The translations under genes and the position numbers were made by a program. Shown here piece by piece: positions 3,980 through 12,012 of a stretch of DNA of 34,194 bases (positions are counted from its first letter, which is position 1; the number at the start of each line of letters is the position of its first letter). Below the pieces are notes generated by a model. The model was not told the DNA's origin. It saw nothing but the letters and a program-made list of their open reading frames with translations, and did not search any database. Origin of the DNA: a virus (taxonomy: Duplodnaviria; Heunggongvirae; Uroviricota; Caudoviricetes); IMG/VR virus record IMGVR_UViG_2541047826_000010. One strand, 5' to 3'.

Positions 3980-4076
3980 AATTTAATTCTCCTCTGTTTC
4001 CGGCGTGCAGAAGCCCACGGCGCTGACGCTGGAATAAAAAAGAAAATGTTTTTATTAAATAATTAACGTGGTGTGT

Positions 4077-4607
4077 TTACTGCACATCCTGCTCAAAAGG
4101 AATTATTGAAAAATCCTCAATGTCGCTTTTAATGGAAATACCGGGAATATTTTTCACGGCCTCTTTTTCATTCAGGATAGCGTCTTTATTTATTTCCTCT
4201 TTTACACGAATAAAGCGCTCAAGCCCCAGACGTCTCAGTAATTCAATAACATTATCCGCCCCACGGATACTGACTGATGGCGGACGGTTTCGCCACTGCA
4301 CCTCGCCGGTGGTGAGGTTAGCGAACTTCACCTTCCCGTTGCCGGTCAGTTCATCACGGTGTGCCTCACACCATGTCTGAATACCGGACTGCAGTTCGGC
4401 CATGCGTTTTTTCAGGCTCTCGGTGAGCGGGGCATAACGTGCGGTGATATCGCCAATGGCGTCATTCATTTCTGTTTCAGCCCTGACCAGTTCACGTTGT
4501 GCGTCACCGAGCAGTCTGATGCCCTCAATGACCTCTTCGCGTGTCCCCGGTACCCAGAGTGCCGCTGCGGACTTGATACGTTTTGCCCCTTTTGTACTTT
4601 TTGCCAT
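4077..4607 (-). CDS. gam: Gam-like host-nuclease inhibitor (Mu Gam family)
   Basis: 176 aa. The coiled-coil N-terminal half and the pattern ...VKFANLTTGEVQWRNRPPSVSIRG...IELLRRLGLERFIRVKEEINKDAIL are typical of Mu Gam. It lies downstream of the A/B genes. Confidence 0.85.
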   Translation of the reverse strand: MAKSTKGAKRIKSAAALWVPGTREEVIEGIRLLGDAQRELVRAETEMNDAIGDITARYAPLTESLKKRMAELQSGIQTWCEAHRDELTGNGKVKFANLTTGEVQWRNRPPSVSIRGADNVIELLRRLGLERFIRVKEEINKDAILNEKEAVKNIPGISIKSDIEDFSIIPFEQDVQ

Positions 4608-4634
4608 ATTTTATGATTTCTCCGGTTGTGCTGA

Positions 4635-4904
4635 TTACCACAAAGATTCCGGCCACACGACGCGACAGCCGTGCAGTTCGAAAACGCCCTGACGGAAATG
4701 ACCCCTGTGGTCATGACCGGTATACAGATAACTGGCTTTCCCCTGTTCAAGCATGTGTATGCAATGCGCACTCCGGGAAACTCGGATGACAGGTTTATGG
4801 CCCCTGATGGTGATGCTCTGTATATCCGTATTCGTCGCCTTAAGTGCCATAATGGCTGACTGCACTTTGTTAATCTGCTGGCTGATAACTGTGGTGGATT
4901 TCAT
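4635..4904 (-). CDS. hypothetical early protein
   Basis: 89 aa. SD AAGGGG. Lies immediately after the B-like gene. I recognise no family. Confidence 0.55.
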   Translation of the reverse strand: MKSTTVISQQINKVQSAIMALKATNTDIQSITIRGHKPVIRVSRSAHCIHMLEQGKASYLYTGHDHRGHFRQGVFELHGCRVVWPESLW

Positions 4905-4906
4905 TA

Positions 4907-6073
4907 TTAAACCCCTTTGACAACGTCAGCATTGACCTGTGGAACCCCGATTTCAGCGGCCAGATTCATGGCGGCTATCACCAGGTTACTGACGGCCAGC
5001 GGATACAGCAGGCTGACCATATTTTTACGATGACTTCCCGGATTGCTCAGGCGGGCACGTATGGCATCCACTGCGCTGGCGTCCATAATGTCCGTCAGTT
5101 GTTTACCGGCCCGTTGCAGTTTGAACGTCAGAAATTCTTCAAGGTTATTGTCCAGAGGCAGAAGTTCGACCACCTCACAGCGCTGAACGACTTCACGGAC
5201 TTCCATATTGCGTTCAGACAGTTTTGTCGCCAGTTCCGGCTGGCCAATCAGCACGATGGACAGCAGTTTTTTGAAACCGGACTCCAGCTCAAAAAAGCGT
5301 TTGAGGTGTTTCAGTGTCGGAATGGGCAGACTGTGGGCCTCCTCAATCACCAGAACGTGGCTGAACCCCGCCTGGCTGCTGTCTTTCAGGACGCGATGCA
5401 ACTGGCGAAAGCGGGCGTCCTGACTGCGTCTGATGCTTTCCAGTGGTGCGATGGTACTGATAATGGCTTCGGCAATCGCTGCTGCCTTCAGGGTTTTCCC
5501 TTTCACATCGTTGTCTTCCATAGCGATGATGTATGGCTCGATAACAATTACCGGCGCATTCTCGCGGTTGATACGTTCAGTCAGGTCGCGGCGCAGCGTG
5601 GATTTACCCGCACCGGACTCACCGATGACGGCCATAAACCCACCATGACGGGCTGTCTGGTACAACGCCTCACGCACGTAGCGAATGTCCGGGGTGGTGA
5701 ACACATCATCAGAACCCTGCATGGCTTCGTCGGCGAACGGGTCACGGAAAAGACCAAACGCTTTTTTGGTTGCTGGAAATAACACCTGTTTTTTGAGTAA
5801 CATATTCTCTTCCTCACTGAGGCTCGTTTTATCTGTGGTACCCGCTGTACGGGGCGTGGCCGCGCCCTGTACAGCATCAAAACTCTTCGTTGTATCAATC
5901 CCCTGACTTTCCAGCCAGGACGCAAGACGCCGGCGCACTTCTCCGGGGCTGGTGCGGGGCCACGCGTTATGATTCACAATCTGGGCCAGCGTGGCCTCAG
6001 AAACATCGACAGCTCTCGCCACCACCGCCTGTGGAATACGGGCCTCTTTCAGTTGCTGCTTCAGTACCAGCAT
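4907..6073 (-). CDS. MuB-like AAA+ ATPase, transposition target-DNA activator
   Basis: Walker A GESGAGKST, Walker B VLVIEEAH, and an N-terminal HTH-like segment. I chose the ATG at 6073 because it is preceded by GAGGAGGG. Lies directly downstream of the transposase. Confidence 0.85.
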   Translation of the reverse strand: MLVLKQQLKEARIPQAVVARAVDVSEATLAQIVNHNAWPRTSPGEVRRRLASWLESQGIDTTKSFDAVQGAATPRTAGTTDKTSLSEEENMLLKKQVLFPATKKAFGLFRDPFADEAMQGSDDVFTTPDIRYVREALYQTARHGGFMAVIGESGAGKSTLRRDLTERINRENAPVIVIEPYIIAMEDNDVKGKTLKAAAIAEAIISTIAPLESIRRSQDARFRQLHRVLKDSSQAGFSHVLVIEEAHSLPIPTLKHLKRFFELESGFKKLLSIVLIGQPELATKLSERNMEVREVVQRCEVVELLPLDNNLEEFLTFKLQRAGKQLTDIMDASAVDAIRARLSNPGSHRKNMVSLLYPLAVSNLVIAAMNLAAEIGVPQVNADVVKGV

Positions 6074-9142: not shown

Positions 9143-9331
9143 TTATGCCGCATTTGACGTGGGTTTTAATCCCAGTTTTACGGCAATTTCATGGGCTTTG
9201 CCGTAACGAGCTTTGGTCTGTCCATTGAGAACACGATAGACCTCATTGCGGCTGTAGCCGTGTTCTTCGGCCCAGCGGGTAAACGTGATACCACGCTGAC
9301 GGAAGAGATTTTTAACTTGTTCGGAAGTCAT
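9143..9331 (-). CDS. Ner/Cro-like small HTH regulator, first gene of the early operon
   Basis: 62 aa. HTH FTRWAEEHGYSRNEVYRVLNG. SD AAGGAG. Divergent from the repressor gene. Confidence 0.65.
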   Translation of the reverse strand: MTSEQVKNLFRQRGITFTRWAEEHGYSRNEVYRVLNGQTKARYGKAHEIAVKLGLKPTSNAA

Positions 9332-9367: not shown

Positions 9368-9377
9368 ATATGTGATA
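9368..9377. repeat. third copy of ATATGTGATA, overlapping the predicted early-transcript start
   Basis: Exact 10-mer repeat of 9111-9120, just downstream of the predicted -10 element of the early promoter. Confidence 0.4.
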
Positions 9378-9378
9378 G

Positions 9379-9407
9379 ATTATGAGAACTATTGTTCTCA
9401 TTGTCAA
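9379..9407 (-). promoter_or_regulatory. early promoter (Pe analogue): TTGACA-17 nt-CATAAT on the minus strand
   Basis: The minus strand reads TTGACA (plus-strand coordinates 9402-9407), a 17-nt spacer, then CATAAT (9379-9384). It lies about 45 nt upstream of the Ner-like ATG at 9331. Confidence 0.6.
9382..9401. promoter_or_regulatory. perfect palindromic operator candidate ATGAGAAC-TATT-GTTCTCAT
   Basis: 8-bp arms with a 4-bp spacer, read directly from the sequence. It fills the spacer and part of the -10 of the predicted early promoter. Confidence 0.55.
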
Positions 9408-9417
9408 TGAGGTTTAT

Positions 9418-9843
9418 GTGAATTTTGATTCTCTTTGCGCGTCGCGGTTCAAAGCTGAGCGTTCGCGGTTATCACTCAAGCAGGCTGAAGTAGCAGCCCT
9501 TTGTGGCGTTTCAAGAGAAATGTGGGGGAAATATGAACGAGGGGTTGCTGTTCCCGGAGGTGAGTTACTTGCAGCCTTTGCAAGAATTGGGGCCAATGTA
9601 CAGTTCATTCTTACCGGGGAGTCATCAGGTATAACTTTATCACGTGATGAAATGGAGTTACTGCAGCACTACCGGCAGGCACCATTACAGGTCAAAGGTT
9701 CAGTTTTGTCGGCCTTGACTACTGGCTCCTCCAGAGAACGGGCGGAACAGGTTATTCATGGAGATGTTCTGGGGAATGTTATCAAAGGTAACGTAACCAT
9801 AGGAACAGGTGGAATAATGAACAAAAATACCAAGAGAAGATGA
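9418..9843 (+). CDS. XRE/Cro-C1-type prophage repressor (no S24 peptidase domain)
   Basis: HTH LSLKQAEVAALCGVSREMWGKYERG ... NVQFILTGE. I prefer the GTG at 9418, which follows GAGG by 5 nt. The ATG at 9382 lies inside the operator palindrome. The C-terminal tail carries HGDVLGNVIKGNVTIGTGG. Confidence 0.8.
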   Translation: MNFDSLCASRFKAERSRLSLKQAEVAALCGVSREMWGKYERGVAVPGGELLAAFARIGANVQFILTGESSGITLSRDEMELLQHYRQAPLQVKGSVLSALTTGSSRERAEQVIHGDVLGNVIKGNVTIGTGGIMNKNTKRR

Positions 9844-10826
9844 GTAAAGAGAAGCAAACAGTTAACGGGGATGTGGGTAACGTTGTCAGCGGTGATGTTA
9901 CCATTCATAACTATTCTGCTGACATACTTCCTTCGGCCCAGCAACCAATTTCGTTGCTGCAAAAACGCGATTTACACAGATTGATGGATGAATTGGTTGA
10001 TCTGGGGGAAAGTAAGCGCGAGCTATGGATGACGATCCACACGAAACTTAATACCAAAACAGTTAATGAAATGACTGCGGCTGATTATCATGGTGCGGTT
10101 GAGATCCTTCAGAGATATGCACAACAGATCCAGAATATGAAGGACTGTAATCTTCTGGTCAGCAAAATAATGGCGCTTACTGACCCTGGGTATCGTCTTG
10201 ACCGTGACAGATACTGTCTGAAGCATTTCGGTACAACCCATCTTAAAGGCCTAGACAAAGAGCAGTTGCAGGCTGTGTTTGGTTATTTTGATGATCTGCT
10301 GAATATTCGTGATGAGAGTAAAACTCTATCACCTCCATCGGAAAGCGGTGCAAAATCAGTCGCAACTGTACCAACCAGAAGCCGGAAGCCTCATGTAGTA
10401 GTGTTGGGGGGAGTGTTAGTTCTTGTAGCAATATTTTTCGTGGGAATGATTGTGTTCGCTGGTAAATGGGGAAATGCCAAAGCAGTAGCTTCTACTGAAA
10501 CCAGCGTTTTTAACATTAAAACCAACGATAAAATAATAGAAGATTCCATCCCCGCACTGCGCAGCATGTTTCCAGGGTTAAATAAGTACTCAGATGATTT
10601 CCATTCGGTTTCAAGCTACAAGCAAAAAACGGGCTGGCATACCCTTAAATTTACTGTATCAGCAAAGGCATCCGTCCCCGAAAATTATAGTGTTAAGGGC
10701 AAGGTTTGTTACATTAACATAAGCCCTGATGGTAGTTATGCTCGGGTTTTGACTGCTCCATGTCGTTCACTGCTACTTGATCAGCAAAGCACTCCTGACA
10801 GTAAATACCGTTTTATTCTTAAATAG
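9840..10826 (+). CDS. bitopic membrane protein of unknown function, translationally coupled to the repressor
   Basis: 328 aa. ATGA overlap with the repressor stop (9840-9843). The N-terminus carries NGDVGNVVSGDVTIHN. A single TM helix spans about aa 185-208 (HVVVLGGVLVLVAIFFVGMIVFAG) and is preceded by RSRKPH. The C-terminal domain of about 120 aa is predicted periplasmic. GC is low. Confidence 0.7.
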   Translation: MSKEKQTVNGDVGNVVSGDVTIHNYSADILPSAQQPISLLQKRDLHRLMDELVDLGESKRELWMTIHTKLNTKTVNEMTAADYHGAVEILQRYAQQIQNMKDCNLLVSKIMALTDPGYRLDRDRYCLKHFGTTHLKGLDKEQLQAVFGYFDDLLNIRDESKTLSPPSESGAKSVATVPTRSRKPHVVVLGGVLVLVAIFFVGMIVFAGKWGNAKAVASTETSVFNIKTNDKIIEDSIPALRSMFPGLNKYSDDFHSVSSYKQKTGWHTLKFTVSAKASVPENYSVKGKVCYINISPDGSYARVLTAPCRSLLLDQQSTPDSKYRFILK

Positions 10827-10916
10827 AAAATAACAGCTGAATTACCATGGGATCAGAAAAAAGACAAAGGCGGCATCATGCTGCGTTCTGAAATTTTAAT
10901 GTAAAAGGTGATGAAC

Positions 10917-11498
10917 ATGGCAGGGATTCAGGTTATCGCAGGAAGTTTTCCTAAAGGGTGGGCAAGCATGGGGTTCGGTACCATCGTGTTTGCCAAAAAA
11001 CCAAAACAAGGCTTTCCTGAAAATATTGTATTAAATCTGAAAGAAGAGCTTTTATCGATTGAACTTGCGGATAGTGAAGAGGAAAGCCGTATAGGTAAGG
11101 CGGCAGGCGCAGGTTTGCTTGGTGGATTAATCTTTGGTGGTGCAGGGTTGGTCATTGGAGGTTTGCTTGGTGCGGCGGACAAGACGAAAAAAACTATCAC
11201 TTTTAAGGCAATGTTTACGGGAAATAGGTTACTTCTGGCTAAAACAGATTCAAAAACTTTTGTAAAACTTCAGTCAATTGCTGCTGATAATGCCCATAAC
11301 GCATCTGTAATCAACATGAAGCAAACTAACAGGGGCGATGTTTCTTCTCGTAAACAACTAACAGAAAATCCACAGCAGCAAGACTTACCTGCGCCCGCTA
11401 CAACAGTAAAAATGACTGCCAAAGATAAGTTAGAATCGGCTCTTGGGCTGGGAATCATCGTTATAGCTGTTTGGGCAATAATACACTTCTTTTTTTAG
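10917..11498 (+). CDS. glycine-zipper membrane protein of unknown function
   Basis: The ATG at 10917 lies 6 nt after AAGGTG; alternative starts are 10908 and 10911. Glycine-zipper segment AAGAGLLGGLIFGGAGLVIGGLLGAA spans aa 61-87. A C-terminal TM anchor reads LGLGIIVIAVWAIIHFFF. Confidence 0.7.
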   Translation: MAGIQVIAGSFPKGWASMGFGTIVFAKKPKQGFPENIVLNLKEELLSIELADSEEESRIGKAAGAGLLGGLIFGGAGLVIGGLLGAADKTKKTITFKAMFTGNRLLLAKTDSKTFVKLQSIAADNAHNASVINMKQTNRGDVSSRKQLTENPQQQDLPAPATTVKMTAKDKLESALGLGIIVIAVWAIIHFFF

Positions 11499-11500
11499 TG

Positions 11501-11524
11501 CAGCCCTTCAGGGCTGTTTCTGTT
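11501..11524 (+). terminator. intrinsic terminator closing the repressor operon
   Basis: CAGCCC-TTCA-GGGCTG stem-loop followed by TTTCTGTT, starting 3 nt after the stop codon. Confidence 0.7.
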
Positions 11525-11535
11525 CAGGAGGTATC

Positions 11536-12012
11536 TTAAGGATTATCCGGGGCGTTTTCCTGTTTGCCGTACTTCGGAGACGAACAACATTCTGTTGGCT
11601 GACCGGTGAGTTTACGTAACTCCTTCATGAGCAGCTCCTGATCGTAAACTGTCATCAGTGCCGCAATGGTGGCATGCAGTGCATCGGGCAGTATCCAGGG
11701 TTGCCGGCCCGTGGGGCATATAACATCCAGCAGCTCATTCGTCCGACAGATACGCTCCTCGCCGTATGACAACAGGCCCTGTCCCGTGTATTCCTCCAGC
11801 CTGATCACTGTGCCACCCCGTGGCTTCTGCCAGGTCGTCAGATCTTCGCCATTCATACGGCGCTCATTCTCCACGTCAGCAGCATCGACAATGACGCTGT
11901 TTCCGAGTTCCTGTTTCACCATCTCTTCTATCCGCGCCAGTACGTAACTTTTACCGCTGCCCACAGGACCGGACACAGTGACAGTGATGACCGGATTCAG
12001 TGTGTGCGTCAT
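11536..12012 (-). CDS. small P-loop NTPase (hypothetical), solitary minus-strand gene
   Basis: 158 aa. Walker A GPVGSGKS at aa 15-22. Possible Walker B VIVDAAD. SD GAGGAG. Convergent with the cassette and divergent from the late operon. Confidence 0.65.
   Translation of the reverse strand: MTHTLNPVITVTVSGPVGSGKSYVLARIEEMVKQELGNSVIVDAADVENERRMNGEDLTTWQKPRGGTVIRLEEYTGQGLLSYGEERICRTNELLDVICPTGRQPWILPDALHATIAALMTVYDQELLMKELRKLTGQPTECCSSPKYGKQENAPDNP

Follow-up and report, generated by a model that had tools for sequence, protein, structure and literature searches.

A co-varying terminal motif shared by prophage XRE repressors and the products of their neighbouring genes

The 34,194-nucleotide stretch of DNA analysed here (IMG/VR virus record IMGVR_UViG_2541047826_000010; the whole of it is called the window below) is a BcepMu-like, that is Mu-like, transposable prophage of Escherichia coli. 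Across positions 1-34194 it carries genes for Mor, gp16/GemA-like, Gam, transposase, Mu gp27-like and Mu-type portal proteins, and its early region is inverted with respect to the late genes, as in BcepMu. Our subject is a pair of overlapping plus-strand genes within it, one encoding an immunity-repressor-like protein of the XRE family and the next encoding a membrane protein, referred to below as the partner. The C-terminal tail of the repressor and the N-terminus of the partner carry a common short motif, and in related prophages whose repressors end in quite different tails the start of the downstream protein changes in step. The pair is laid out as follows.

9418..9843, plus strand: immunity-repressor-like XRE gene, 141 residues from the GTG at 9418 (Pfam HTH_31/HTH_3)
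9418..9615, plus strand: helix-turn-helix (HTH) domain, residues 1-66 of the 141-residue form; five helices in the AlphaFold2 model at a predicted local distance difference test score (pLDDT) above 90; Pfam match
9643..9723, plus strand: two conserved helices after the HTH domain, L..DE..L...YR.AP...K...LAAL (AlphaFold2 helices 76-87 and 90-102, span 76-102; conservation in alignment A1)
9739..9801, plus strand: repressor C-terminal tail motif RAEQVIHGDVLGNVIKGNVTI, with the core HGDVLGNVIKGNVTIG at 9757-9804
9820..9840, plus strand: basic C-terminal end NKNTKRR, for which an aggregation gatekeeper, a degron and a membrane or DNA contact are candidate roles
9840..9843, plus strand: ATGA overlap of the repressor stop and the partner start, a 4-nt overlap found also in relatives
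9840..10826, plus strand: partner gene, encoding a 328-residue single-pass inner-membrane protein (WP_000031883, annotated hypothetical)
9846..9905, plus strand: partner N-terminal motif KEKQTVNGDVGNVVSGDVTI, with the core NGDVGNVVSGDVTIH at 9864-9908
9942..10316, plus strand: cytoplasmic helical domain of Flk_N type, residues 35-159 (pLDDT about 90; precomputed match to PF27202, Flk_N)
10392..10463, plus strand: transmembrane helix, residues 185-208 (hydropathy maximum 3.05; helix in the AlphaFold2 model; the sole strong hydrophobic helix)
10503..10823, plus strand: C-terminal alpha/beta domain, probably periplasmic, residues 222-328 (pLDDT above 90)

The repressor ends in ...RAEQVIHGDVLGNVIKGNVTIGTGGIMNKNTKRR and the partner begins with MSKEKQTVNGDVGNVVSGDVTIHNYS. 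Aligned by Smith-Waterman, the tail RAEQVIHGDVLGNVIKGNVTI and the partner sequence KEKQTVNGDV-GNVVSGDVTI score 55 over 21 columns (repressor 9739-9801, partner 9846-9905), a value reached by none of 20,000 composition-preserving shuffles (mean 19.4, standard deviation 3.9, maximum 43). Ten residues of the 15-residue core are identical, with one single-residue gap. When the whole window is translated in six frames and the tail itself is set aside, nothing matches the tail better than the partner N-terminus, the next best score being 37, and that search yielded no third copy of the motif. Beneath the core the DNA is 64% identical, with the same codon at four of the ten identical residues and a longest common word of 8 nt. 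The original prediction had pointed to the repressor tail, to the overlapping start of the next protein, to a likeness of about 15 residues between the two and to nucleotide sequences that differ, and each of these observations is borne out by the measurements.

Loci around repressor homologues were taken from genomes, viral contigs and metagenomes, and the tail in each was compared with the start of the next gene product. The homologues carry markedly different C-terminal tails, the types including QVIHGDVLGNVIKGNVTI, QIFNGDISGQFAGNQIIN, ISVSGxGNRVAGRDYxE, FKDVGQYIHGSVNQSGVTFNV, GSGxVQVGxVGG and HRFALGDYHE, and the downstream protein opens with the same type, as in the following examples.

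Izhakiella (L011): repressor tail ISVSGKGNRVAGRDFNENKK; downstream N-terminus MTVNSTGGQNRVAGRDFNENKI
Pectobacterium (L002): repressor tail SQIFNGDISGQFAGNQIINNG; downstream N-terminus MRQEFNGTAQGQFSSRDIINIH
Pseudomonas (L012): repressor tail QTFKDVGQYIHGSVNQSGVTFNV; downstream N-terminus MSQDFHGGVGQVAEGDINNYGININ
Locus L081: repressor tail GKGHRFALGDYHENK; downstream N-terminus GQEHRIALGDYYEHT
Locus L099: repressor tail AAGGVQVGYVGGSV; downstream N-terminus GSGGVQVGKVDGDV
Locus L101: repressor tail HGGQFSTGTINNYG; downstream N-terminus HGGQFGQVINNYY

A non-cognate baseline was formed from 2,070 tail/N-terminus comparisons among 46 non-redundant pairs (mean 19.0, standard deviation 5.6, 99th percentile 40). 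Seventeen of the 46 cognate pairs lie above its 99th percentile, with scores of 41-60, and for 13 of these 17 the cognate N-terminus ranks first among all 46. Matching genes lie on the same strand at spacings from -38 nt (with a start codon of our own choosing) to +35 nt, most commonly -4 nt, and the co-variation between tail types spans many genera and two phage lineages, Mu-like and P2-like. The reverse scan, which used alignment A6 (the AGRD-type subset of the partner family), gave the same picture: 39 of 41 distinct loci with an AGRD-type, Flk_N-type partner have an upstream HTH gene that ends in a matching tail, and in one of the remaining two the tail is frameshifted. The original prediction had counted a lack of co-conservation across related prophages among the things that would tell against it, and here it comes through strongly, the motif being both conserved and co-varying in the two proteins. 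The top-scoring 'pair' of the survey (L034) was an artefact of overlapping, repetitive reading frames and was set aside.

A natural domain swap separates the tail from the rest of the repressor. At locus L269 the HTH domain of the repressor is of the P2-like kind, the protein sharing 57% identity over 108 residues with the repressor of locus L220, from a P2-like prophage. Its 40 C-terminal residues share about 90% identity with the window tail, and its partner is of the window type, with the same 4-nt overlap. Locus L220 has the same kind of HTH domain but an AGRD-type tail, and there the partner begins with the AGRD-type motif. The partner N-terminus thus goes with the tail and not with DNA-binding specificity.

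Such a match could in principle be a functionless by-product, arising by local duplication or gene conversion of the gene ends or by a chance resemblance of low-complexity, glycine- and asparagine-rich sequence; the motifs are short and compositionally biased, and the gene ends lie only about 100 nt apart, a proximity that favours local duplication. Several observations argue against this. Chance and low complexity are ruled out by the non-cognate controls and by the shuffles, which keep composition and never reach the observed score. Gene conversion and recent duplication are ruled out by the codons: at 330 identical residues in 32 matching pairs the same codon is used in 43% of cases, exactly the 43% expected from the usage of those genes, and nucleotide identity of the matching motif pairs is 41-75%, so that recent copying has left no trace and it is as protein sequence that the match is preserved. 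The partner motif is, moreover, among the most conserved segments of its protein. Residues G10, G13-G18, V20, I22 and Y25 are invariant in 20 homologues at identities down to 44%, and the linker that follows is more variable than either the motif or the helical domain. With a tail better conserved than the HTH domain across the domain swap, and a match that holds in at least 17 divergent families, a by-product is largely refuted and must be rated very improbable.

A further alternative dispenses with direct binding and treats both motifs as handles for a third factor, such as a host protease or its adaptor, a chaperone or an anionic membrane lipid. Terminal position and disorder would suit a degron or a recognition tag. 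The repressor tail is modelled with low confidence as two short strands, its pLDDT falling from about 58 to 34 over residues 101-141, and partner residues 1-30 are predicted to be disordered (pLDDT about 42). The repressor tail also closes with a basic cluster, and a lysine/arginine-rich end follows nearly all tail types; in phage Mu the C-terminal tail of the repressor governs its sensitivity to ClpXP. We nevertheless consider a third factor unlikely, because four or more unrelated tail types, each with a partner to match, are found among hosts of a single bacterial order, a pairwise diversification that a conserved host factor would not drive; because no third conserved gene travels with the pair, which occurs in both Mu-like and P2-like prophages and is followed by different third genes in different relatives; and because the window holds no further copy of the motif.

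Co-variation of this kind is the signature that would be expected of a direct, sequence-specific association of the two termini, and because the same short sequence is kept at facing termini through many sequence changes, association of like with like explains it best. From the co-variation we judge direct binding, taken by itself, to be clearly probable. The partner N-terminal motif is cytoplasmic, in the same compartment as the repressor. Tail and partner N-terminus would then be a cognate pair of one homotypic association motif, joined by beta pairing of like on like, either as a discrete beta zipper or as an in-register cross-beta stack of the sort formed by amyloid signalling motifs, in which identical glycine, asparagine, glutamine and hydrophobic residues would lie atop one another. 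Alternatively, one of the proteins might form a symmetric interface in which the other can take a place. Matching residues are mostly glycine, asparagine, glutamine, aspartate and aromatic or hydrophobic ones and seldom serine, lysine or threonine; identity between the two proteins is 72% for glycine, 69% for asparagine, 68% for glutamine, 78% for aspartate and 83% for phenylalanine, against 17% for serine and 20% for lysine. Neither motif has a Pfam match, whether to hexapeptide, bactofilin or other repeat families. The hetero-association through the common motif that the original proposal raised as a possibility is backed by the co-variation; the envelope signal that was attached to it is taken up below.

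The nearest known logic is that of the bacterial amyloid signalling sequences (BASS). By definition such a motif occurs both at the C-terminal end of one protein and at the N-terminal end of an NLR-like protein encoded by an adjacent gene; the genes are usually collinear, 57% of pairs lying within 10 bp and 42% overlapping, and the motifs are of about 25 residues (about 21-25), enriched in glutamine, asparagine, glycine, valine and isoleucine and depleted in lysine, proline and leucine. In E. coli, the Bab/Agp pair is located in prophages and signals through such a shared C-terminal/N-terminal motif. The likeness to the present pairs is considerable. In BASS1-11 (Bell/NLR; Bab/Agp) and in the fungal HET-S/NWD2 pair, as here, the products of adjacent collinear genes, which often overlap, carry a common motif, one at its C-terminus and the other at its N-terminus, and the motifs fall into many families that match within each pair. 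The segment is unfolded in the soluble proteins of those systems, and the AlphaFold2 models predict disorder for it here. Composition agrees as well: over 1,100 motif residues, asparagine is enriched 2.9-fold, glycine 2.1-fold, glutamine 1.8-fold, valine 1.5-fold and isoleucine 1.3-fold, with leucine and proline at 0.1-fold and lysine at 0.7-fold, so that the rise of asparagine, glycine, glutamine, valine and isoleucine and the fall of leucine and proline match those of BASS. The present motifs are somewhat shorter, with an aligned length of 11-29 (median 19; 21 columns for the window pair). The principal differences lie in the bodies to which the motifs are attached. The C-terminal motif stands here on an XRE DNA-binding repressor and in BASS on a cell-death effector of Bell/HeLo type, and the N-terminal motif stands here on a Flk_N-type, zinc-ribbon or multi-transmembrane membrane protein and in BASS on an NLR/STAND or tetratricopeptide-repeat (TPR) sensor. 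Because these host domains lack the effector and NLR-like sensor that define the class, we do not count the pair among the BASS.

By this analogy it is conceivable, though doubtful, that the pair works in the manner of a BASS amyloid signalling motif. We hold just as tentatively, as a minority possibility, the fuller proposal that a prion-like amyloid signalling motif wires Mu-like and P2-like immunity repressors to a membrane-anchored neighbour; once clustered, the partner would template the repressor tails into a cross-beta assembly and so switch the repressor off, or else the partner itself would be fired. The literature on amyloid signalling motifs contains no mention of HTH proteins that we could find, and no pair on a transcription factor; likewise, no description of a repressor/membrane-protein motif pair, nor any mention of PF27202, was found in the literature. 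The original prediction knew of no described switch of this type. In the literature consulted that stands as far as transcription factors are concerned, and it needs amending in that a like logic exists in amyloid signalling motif pairs. Joining the products of adjacent genes by a pair of terminal motifs is accordingly a known principle, and what is new is its setting in prophage immunity, on an XRE repressor and a membrane protein.

Around the pair lie the following features.

9143-9331, minus strand: ner-like gene, the first of the minus-strand early operon
9375..9408, no strand: imperfect palindrome (arms 9375-9389 and 9394-9408), a likely operator by its place between the divergent ner-like and repressor genes
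9407..9379, minus strand: strong, near-consensus sigma-70-like promoter TTGACA-17-CATAAT, overlapping the palindrome, which would drive the early operon of ner-like and transposase genes
10908..11498, plus strand: third gene of the transcription unit (orf196), 196 residues with a glycine-zipper-like hydrophobic segment and a hydrophobic C-terminal end
11500..11517, plus strand: terminator-like hairpin closing the repressor-partner-orf196 unit, from a consensus scan only

The early operon on the minus strand comprises the ner-like gene, a small winged-helix gene, a DUF3102 gene and the transposase with its AAA+ partner, and divergent from it on the plus strand run the XRE gene, the 328-residue gene and the 196-residue gene, up to the hairpin. 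The RefSeq annotation starts the repressor at an ATG at 9382 (9382-9843, 153 residues), which falls inside both the palindrome and the minus-strand promoter. That start is probably wrong and the GTG at 9418 likelier; a GAGG lies 6 nt upstream of the GTG, and gene callers give 141 and 139 residues in two relatives. A consensus scan of the window revealed no promoter-like site between the repressor and partner genes, and with their reading frames overlapping and a terminator after the third gene the two would be co-transcribed. The ATGA overlap also implies translational coupling. The repressor gene ends AAG AGA AGA TGA (9832-9843), tandem AGA codons thus preceding the stop that overlaps the partner ATG. 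AGA codons are rare in E. coli, and the purine-rich stretch at 9832-9843 may double as the ribosome-binding site of the partner, where a pause could tune the coupling.

The XRE protein is presumably the immunity repressor of the prophage, because the closest solved relatives of its HTH domain are the N-terminal domains of P22 C2 and 434 cI, because the promoter and palindrome lie just upstream, and because it has no S24 domain. The lack of an S24/LexA peptidase domain, stated in the original prediction, is upheld by Pfam, which gives HTH_31/HTH_3 only. The two conserved helices after the HTH domain may form a dimerisation element. In some homologues an S24 peptidase (PF00717; P0068, P0069 and P0078, from other phages) or a helical domain stands where the tail stands here, and the tail therefore holds the place of the signal-receiving module of classical repressors.

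The partner was correctly described at the outset as a membrane protein with a domain beyond the membrane. It has a single helix at residues 185-208, no signal peptide was found in it, and a confidently modelled domain occupies residues 222-328, in which Cys290 is invariant and Cys308 nearly so, a pattern that fits a periplasmic location. This C-terminal domain has no family assignment, and it is missing from most partner families, being a speciality of the window subfamily. The partner model has no structural relative in PDB or BFVD at E <=0.001, and a sequence-profile search of PDB with the partner returned nothing. Its cytoplasmic helical domain matches residues 14-143 of Flk (RflH, 'Fluke'), a tail-anchored regulator of the flagellar export switch, and most members of the partner family are tail-anchored in the same way. 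The resemblance ends there: the match to the NCBIfam Flk model PRK10715 (E 2.9e-12, 46.6 bits) lies far below the curated equivalog cut-off of 353, Flk lacks the N-terminal motif (P0178, P0180, P0181) and does not lie beside a repressor, and the window partner has an extra 120-residue domain after its transmembrane helix, leaving only the Flk_N domain in common.

An exhaustive HMMER search with the cytoplasmic part of the partner gave 54 clusters at 50% identity, most of them proteins of about 200 residues, tail-anchored and opening with one of the motif types. A search by family profile for HTH-Flk_N fusions gave at least 37 matches, and those listed were all close family members. Cognate partners as a whole are modular, consisting of Flk_N plus a transmembrane segment, a zinc ribbon plus two transmembrane segments, a helical part plus three transmembrane segments, other small transmembrane proteins, or small non-membrane proteins. 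In the family alignment A5 there are weak Pfam matches to ORF6C (2 of 37) and to Mu GemA (2 of 37), at E of about 1e-3, which serve as a lead only; ORF6C we take to be a domain of phage antirepressor-like proteins, and the matches hint that the Flk_N helical domain is distantly related to phage regulatory domains.

The reading that we put forward, at roughly even odds (about 0.5), is that the repressor tail binds the partner N-terminus directly and that the partner governs the availability of the repressor as a signal-receiving antirepressor. Motif binding would couple the repressor physically to the partner, which would set the amount of free repressor available to the operators; once clustered or otherwise activated, the partner would capture or template repressor tails and so take the repressor off the DNA. 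It would act in place of the S24 autocleavage domain of related repressors. Direct binding, contact geometry, which protein controls the other and any effect on induction are all inferences. The original suggestion that such an arrangement might make induction sensitive to an envelope signal does not generalise, as the majority of partners are tail-anchored or lack a periplasmic domain, and some are without any membrane segment. A phage antirepressor that sequesters an immunity repressor and does not cleave it has a precedent in Qtip of vibriophage VP882. Qtip differs in being small and soluble and made only on a quorum-sensing signal, and it is not known to have a motif in common with its repressor.

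The same binding could, however, run the other way, the repressor tail holding or triggering a membrane effector such as an exclusion, abortive-infection or membrane-perturbing protein. The partner N-terminal motif might be set free to self-assemble when the repressor is lost or titrated away, or repressor clustered on DNA might act as the nucleus for assembly of the partner. This reversal of control is the main rival, though we think it improbable; the co-variation fits it equally well, and many partners are small proteins with one to three transmembrane segments, or a zinc ribbon and two, a build common among exclusion and abortive-infection effectors. Exclusion genes, moreover, are often found just downstream of an immunity repressor, as with rexAB of phage lambda. 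Both rex genes are co-transcribed with cI; RexA biases the switch and binds CI, and RexB resides in the inner membrane. The present genes resemble these in lying directly downstream of an immunity repressor and, as far as can be judged from their layout, in being co-transcribed with it. They differ in that lambda CI and the Rex proteins share no terminal motif and CI, unlike the repressor here, has an S24 domain, and the window proteins have no Pfam, PHROG, NCBIfam or PADLOC match that would relate them to RexA or RexB. An effector role for the partner is disfavoured by the lack of any PADLOC match for it and by the partners without a membrane segment (L030, L091 and L099), and the position of the tail, at the site of the S24 signal-receiving domain in related repressors, fits the repressor as the controlled party.

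Oligomerisation offers another account, in which the tail is the repressor's own element for cooperative operator binding and the partner mimics it as a stoichiometric competitor or cap, with no templating. Mimicry of a symmetric homo-oligomer interface predicts just such a sequence likeness between binding partners, and tails without partners do exist (L019, L023 and L028). SinR of Bacillus subtilis is an XRE repressor with a neighbouring antagonist gene, that of SinI, and in SinR/SinI, as in SlrR/SlrA, a C-terminal element of the repressor is shared with the small adjacent antagonist and the heteromer forms through it. The parallel with the present pairs, at the level of sequence, is that an XRE repressor and the product of its neighbour share a C-terminal element of the repressor. 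The Bacillus element, however, is a helical hook, its antagonist is soluble and its role is not phage immunity, whereas the element here is glycine- and asparagine-rich, of beta type and without sequence relationship to it; Pfam finds no SinI/SinR multimerisation domain, and the shared element is modelled as coil or strand. Oligomerisation mimicry leaves the amyloid-motif-like composition unexplained, as it does the fact that coupled expression does not simply inactivate the repressor, and the conserved helices upstream of the tail would make a more conventional dimerisation element. It is in any case a sub-mode of the antirepressor reading and no true alternative to it, and as an account in its own right we find it rather doubtful.

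Four points weigh against the antirepressor reading itself. The bodies of the partners are heterogeneous, and no single sensing function is evident among them. Some repressors bear a tail without a matching neighbour (L019, L023/L024 and L028), so that the tail may act alone. At other loci (L005-L009 and L015-L021) partner-like proteins carry an internal glycine- and asparagine-rich motif next to repressors with a helical C-terminal domain and no motif. Finally, since repressor and partner would be made together in the lysogen, a constitutive inhibitor would be self-defeating, and a conditional step must be assumed.

Two of these arrangements may be described a little further. In the Burkholderiaceae loci L023/L024 (4001-5400) the repressor tail is IRIDGTVHGHVVQGDVVQHGPV, there is no matching partner, and the next gene starts MGWKFQKRIRLLPAVTLNLSRKGIS, which we take to resemble the N-terminal motif of DUF4236. 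At loci L005-L009 and L015-L021 (about 4000-5000; Lonsdalea and Pseudomonas) the HTH repressors end in a helical domain, ...VLKLVINR, and the next gene encodes a transmembrane or zinc-ribbon protein with an N-terminal helix followed by an internal motif (ITISVGGDNPGSIHVGSVVNI; IKIKGDHGNINLGTQ). This second arrangement may represent a related coupling through a different contact.

Induction of Mu-like and many P2-like prophages does not proceed via RecA-stimulated repressor cleavage, and control of their repressors is poorly understood. If real, a co-evolving contact between repressor tail and membrane partner would be a concrete, testable control point for immunity, induction or exclusion. Were it amyloid-like, the reach of amyloid signalling would widen beyond cell-death effectors to take in the control of transcription in ordinary unicellular enterobacteria, with a transcription factor as the target of an amyloid-based switch for lysis-lysogeny or exclusion. 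Independently of mechanism, the many orthogonal motif types amount to a natural set of specific short pairing tags. The interest of the module is high because it is common in E. coli, wholly unannotated and directly testable.

The queried 2.4-kb stretch is 100% identical to a segment of many E. coli chromosomes, and among 5,426 complete E. coli genomes 97 contain the window module almost in full. The prophage in strain AR_0015 adjoins grxA. The AGRD-type module, with tail ...NISGGNNRIAGRDYNETKGR and partner MAVNSNGSNNRVAGRDFHEKN... (L220 2081-3151; L266 9001-11455), occurs in 514 of the same 5,426 genomes, where both of its genes are annotated only as 'hypothetical protein'. Its setting is the immunity region of a P2-like prophage inserted beside yecA, where repressor and partner are followed by a DUF2511 gene and then the integrase. 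Together the two E. coli versions account for 611 genome hits among the 5,426, or at most about 11%, possible overlap of the two sets not being subtracted. Among the phages of the collection surveyed, a single sequenced phage carries the AGRD-type module.

The product of the third gene of the unit, orf196, has PHROG matches only of unknown function, and in Salmonella and other relatives its position is taken by different genes (89 and 250 residues), so that it looks like variable, exchangeable cargo outside the conserved pair. Convergent with the unit, a 158-residue gene on the minus strand (11536-12012) has weak matches to P-loop NTPases (AAA_30, KAP and Zeta-toxin-like) and is annotated 'ABC transporter ATPase'; placed between the lysogeny unit and the holin/lysis genes, it may be a moron.

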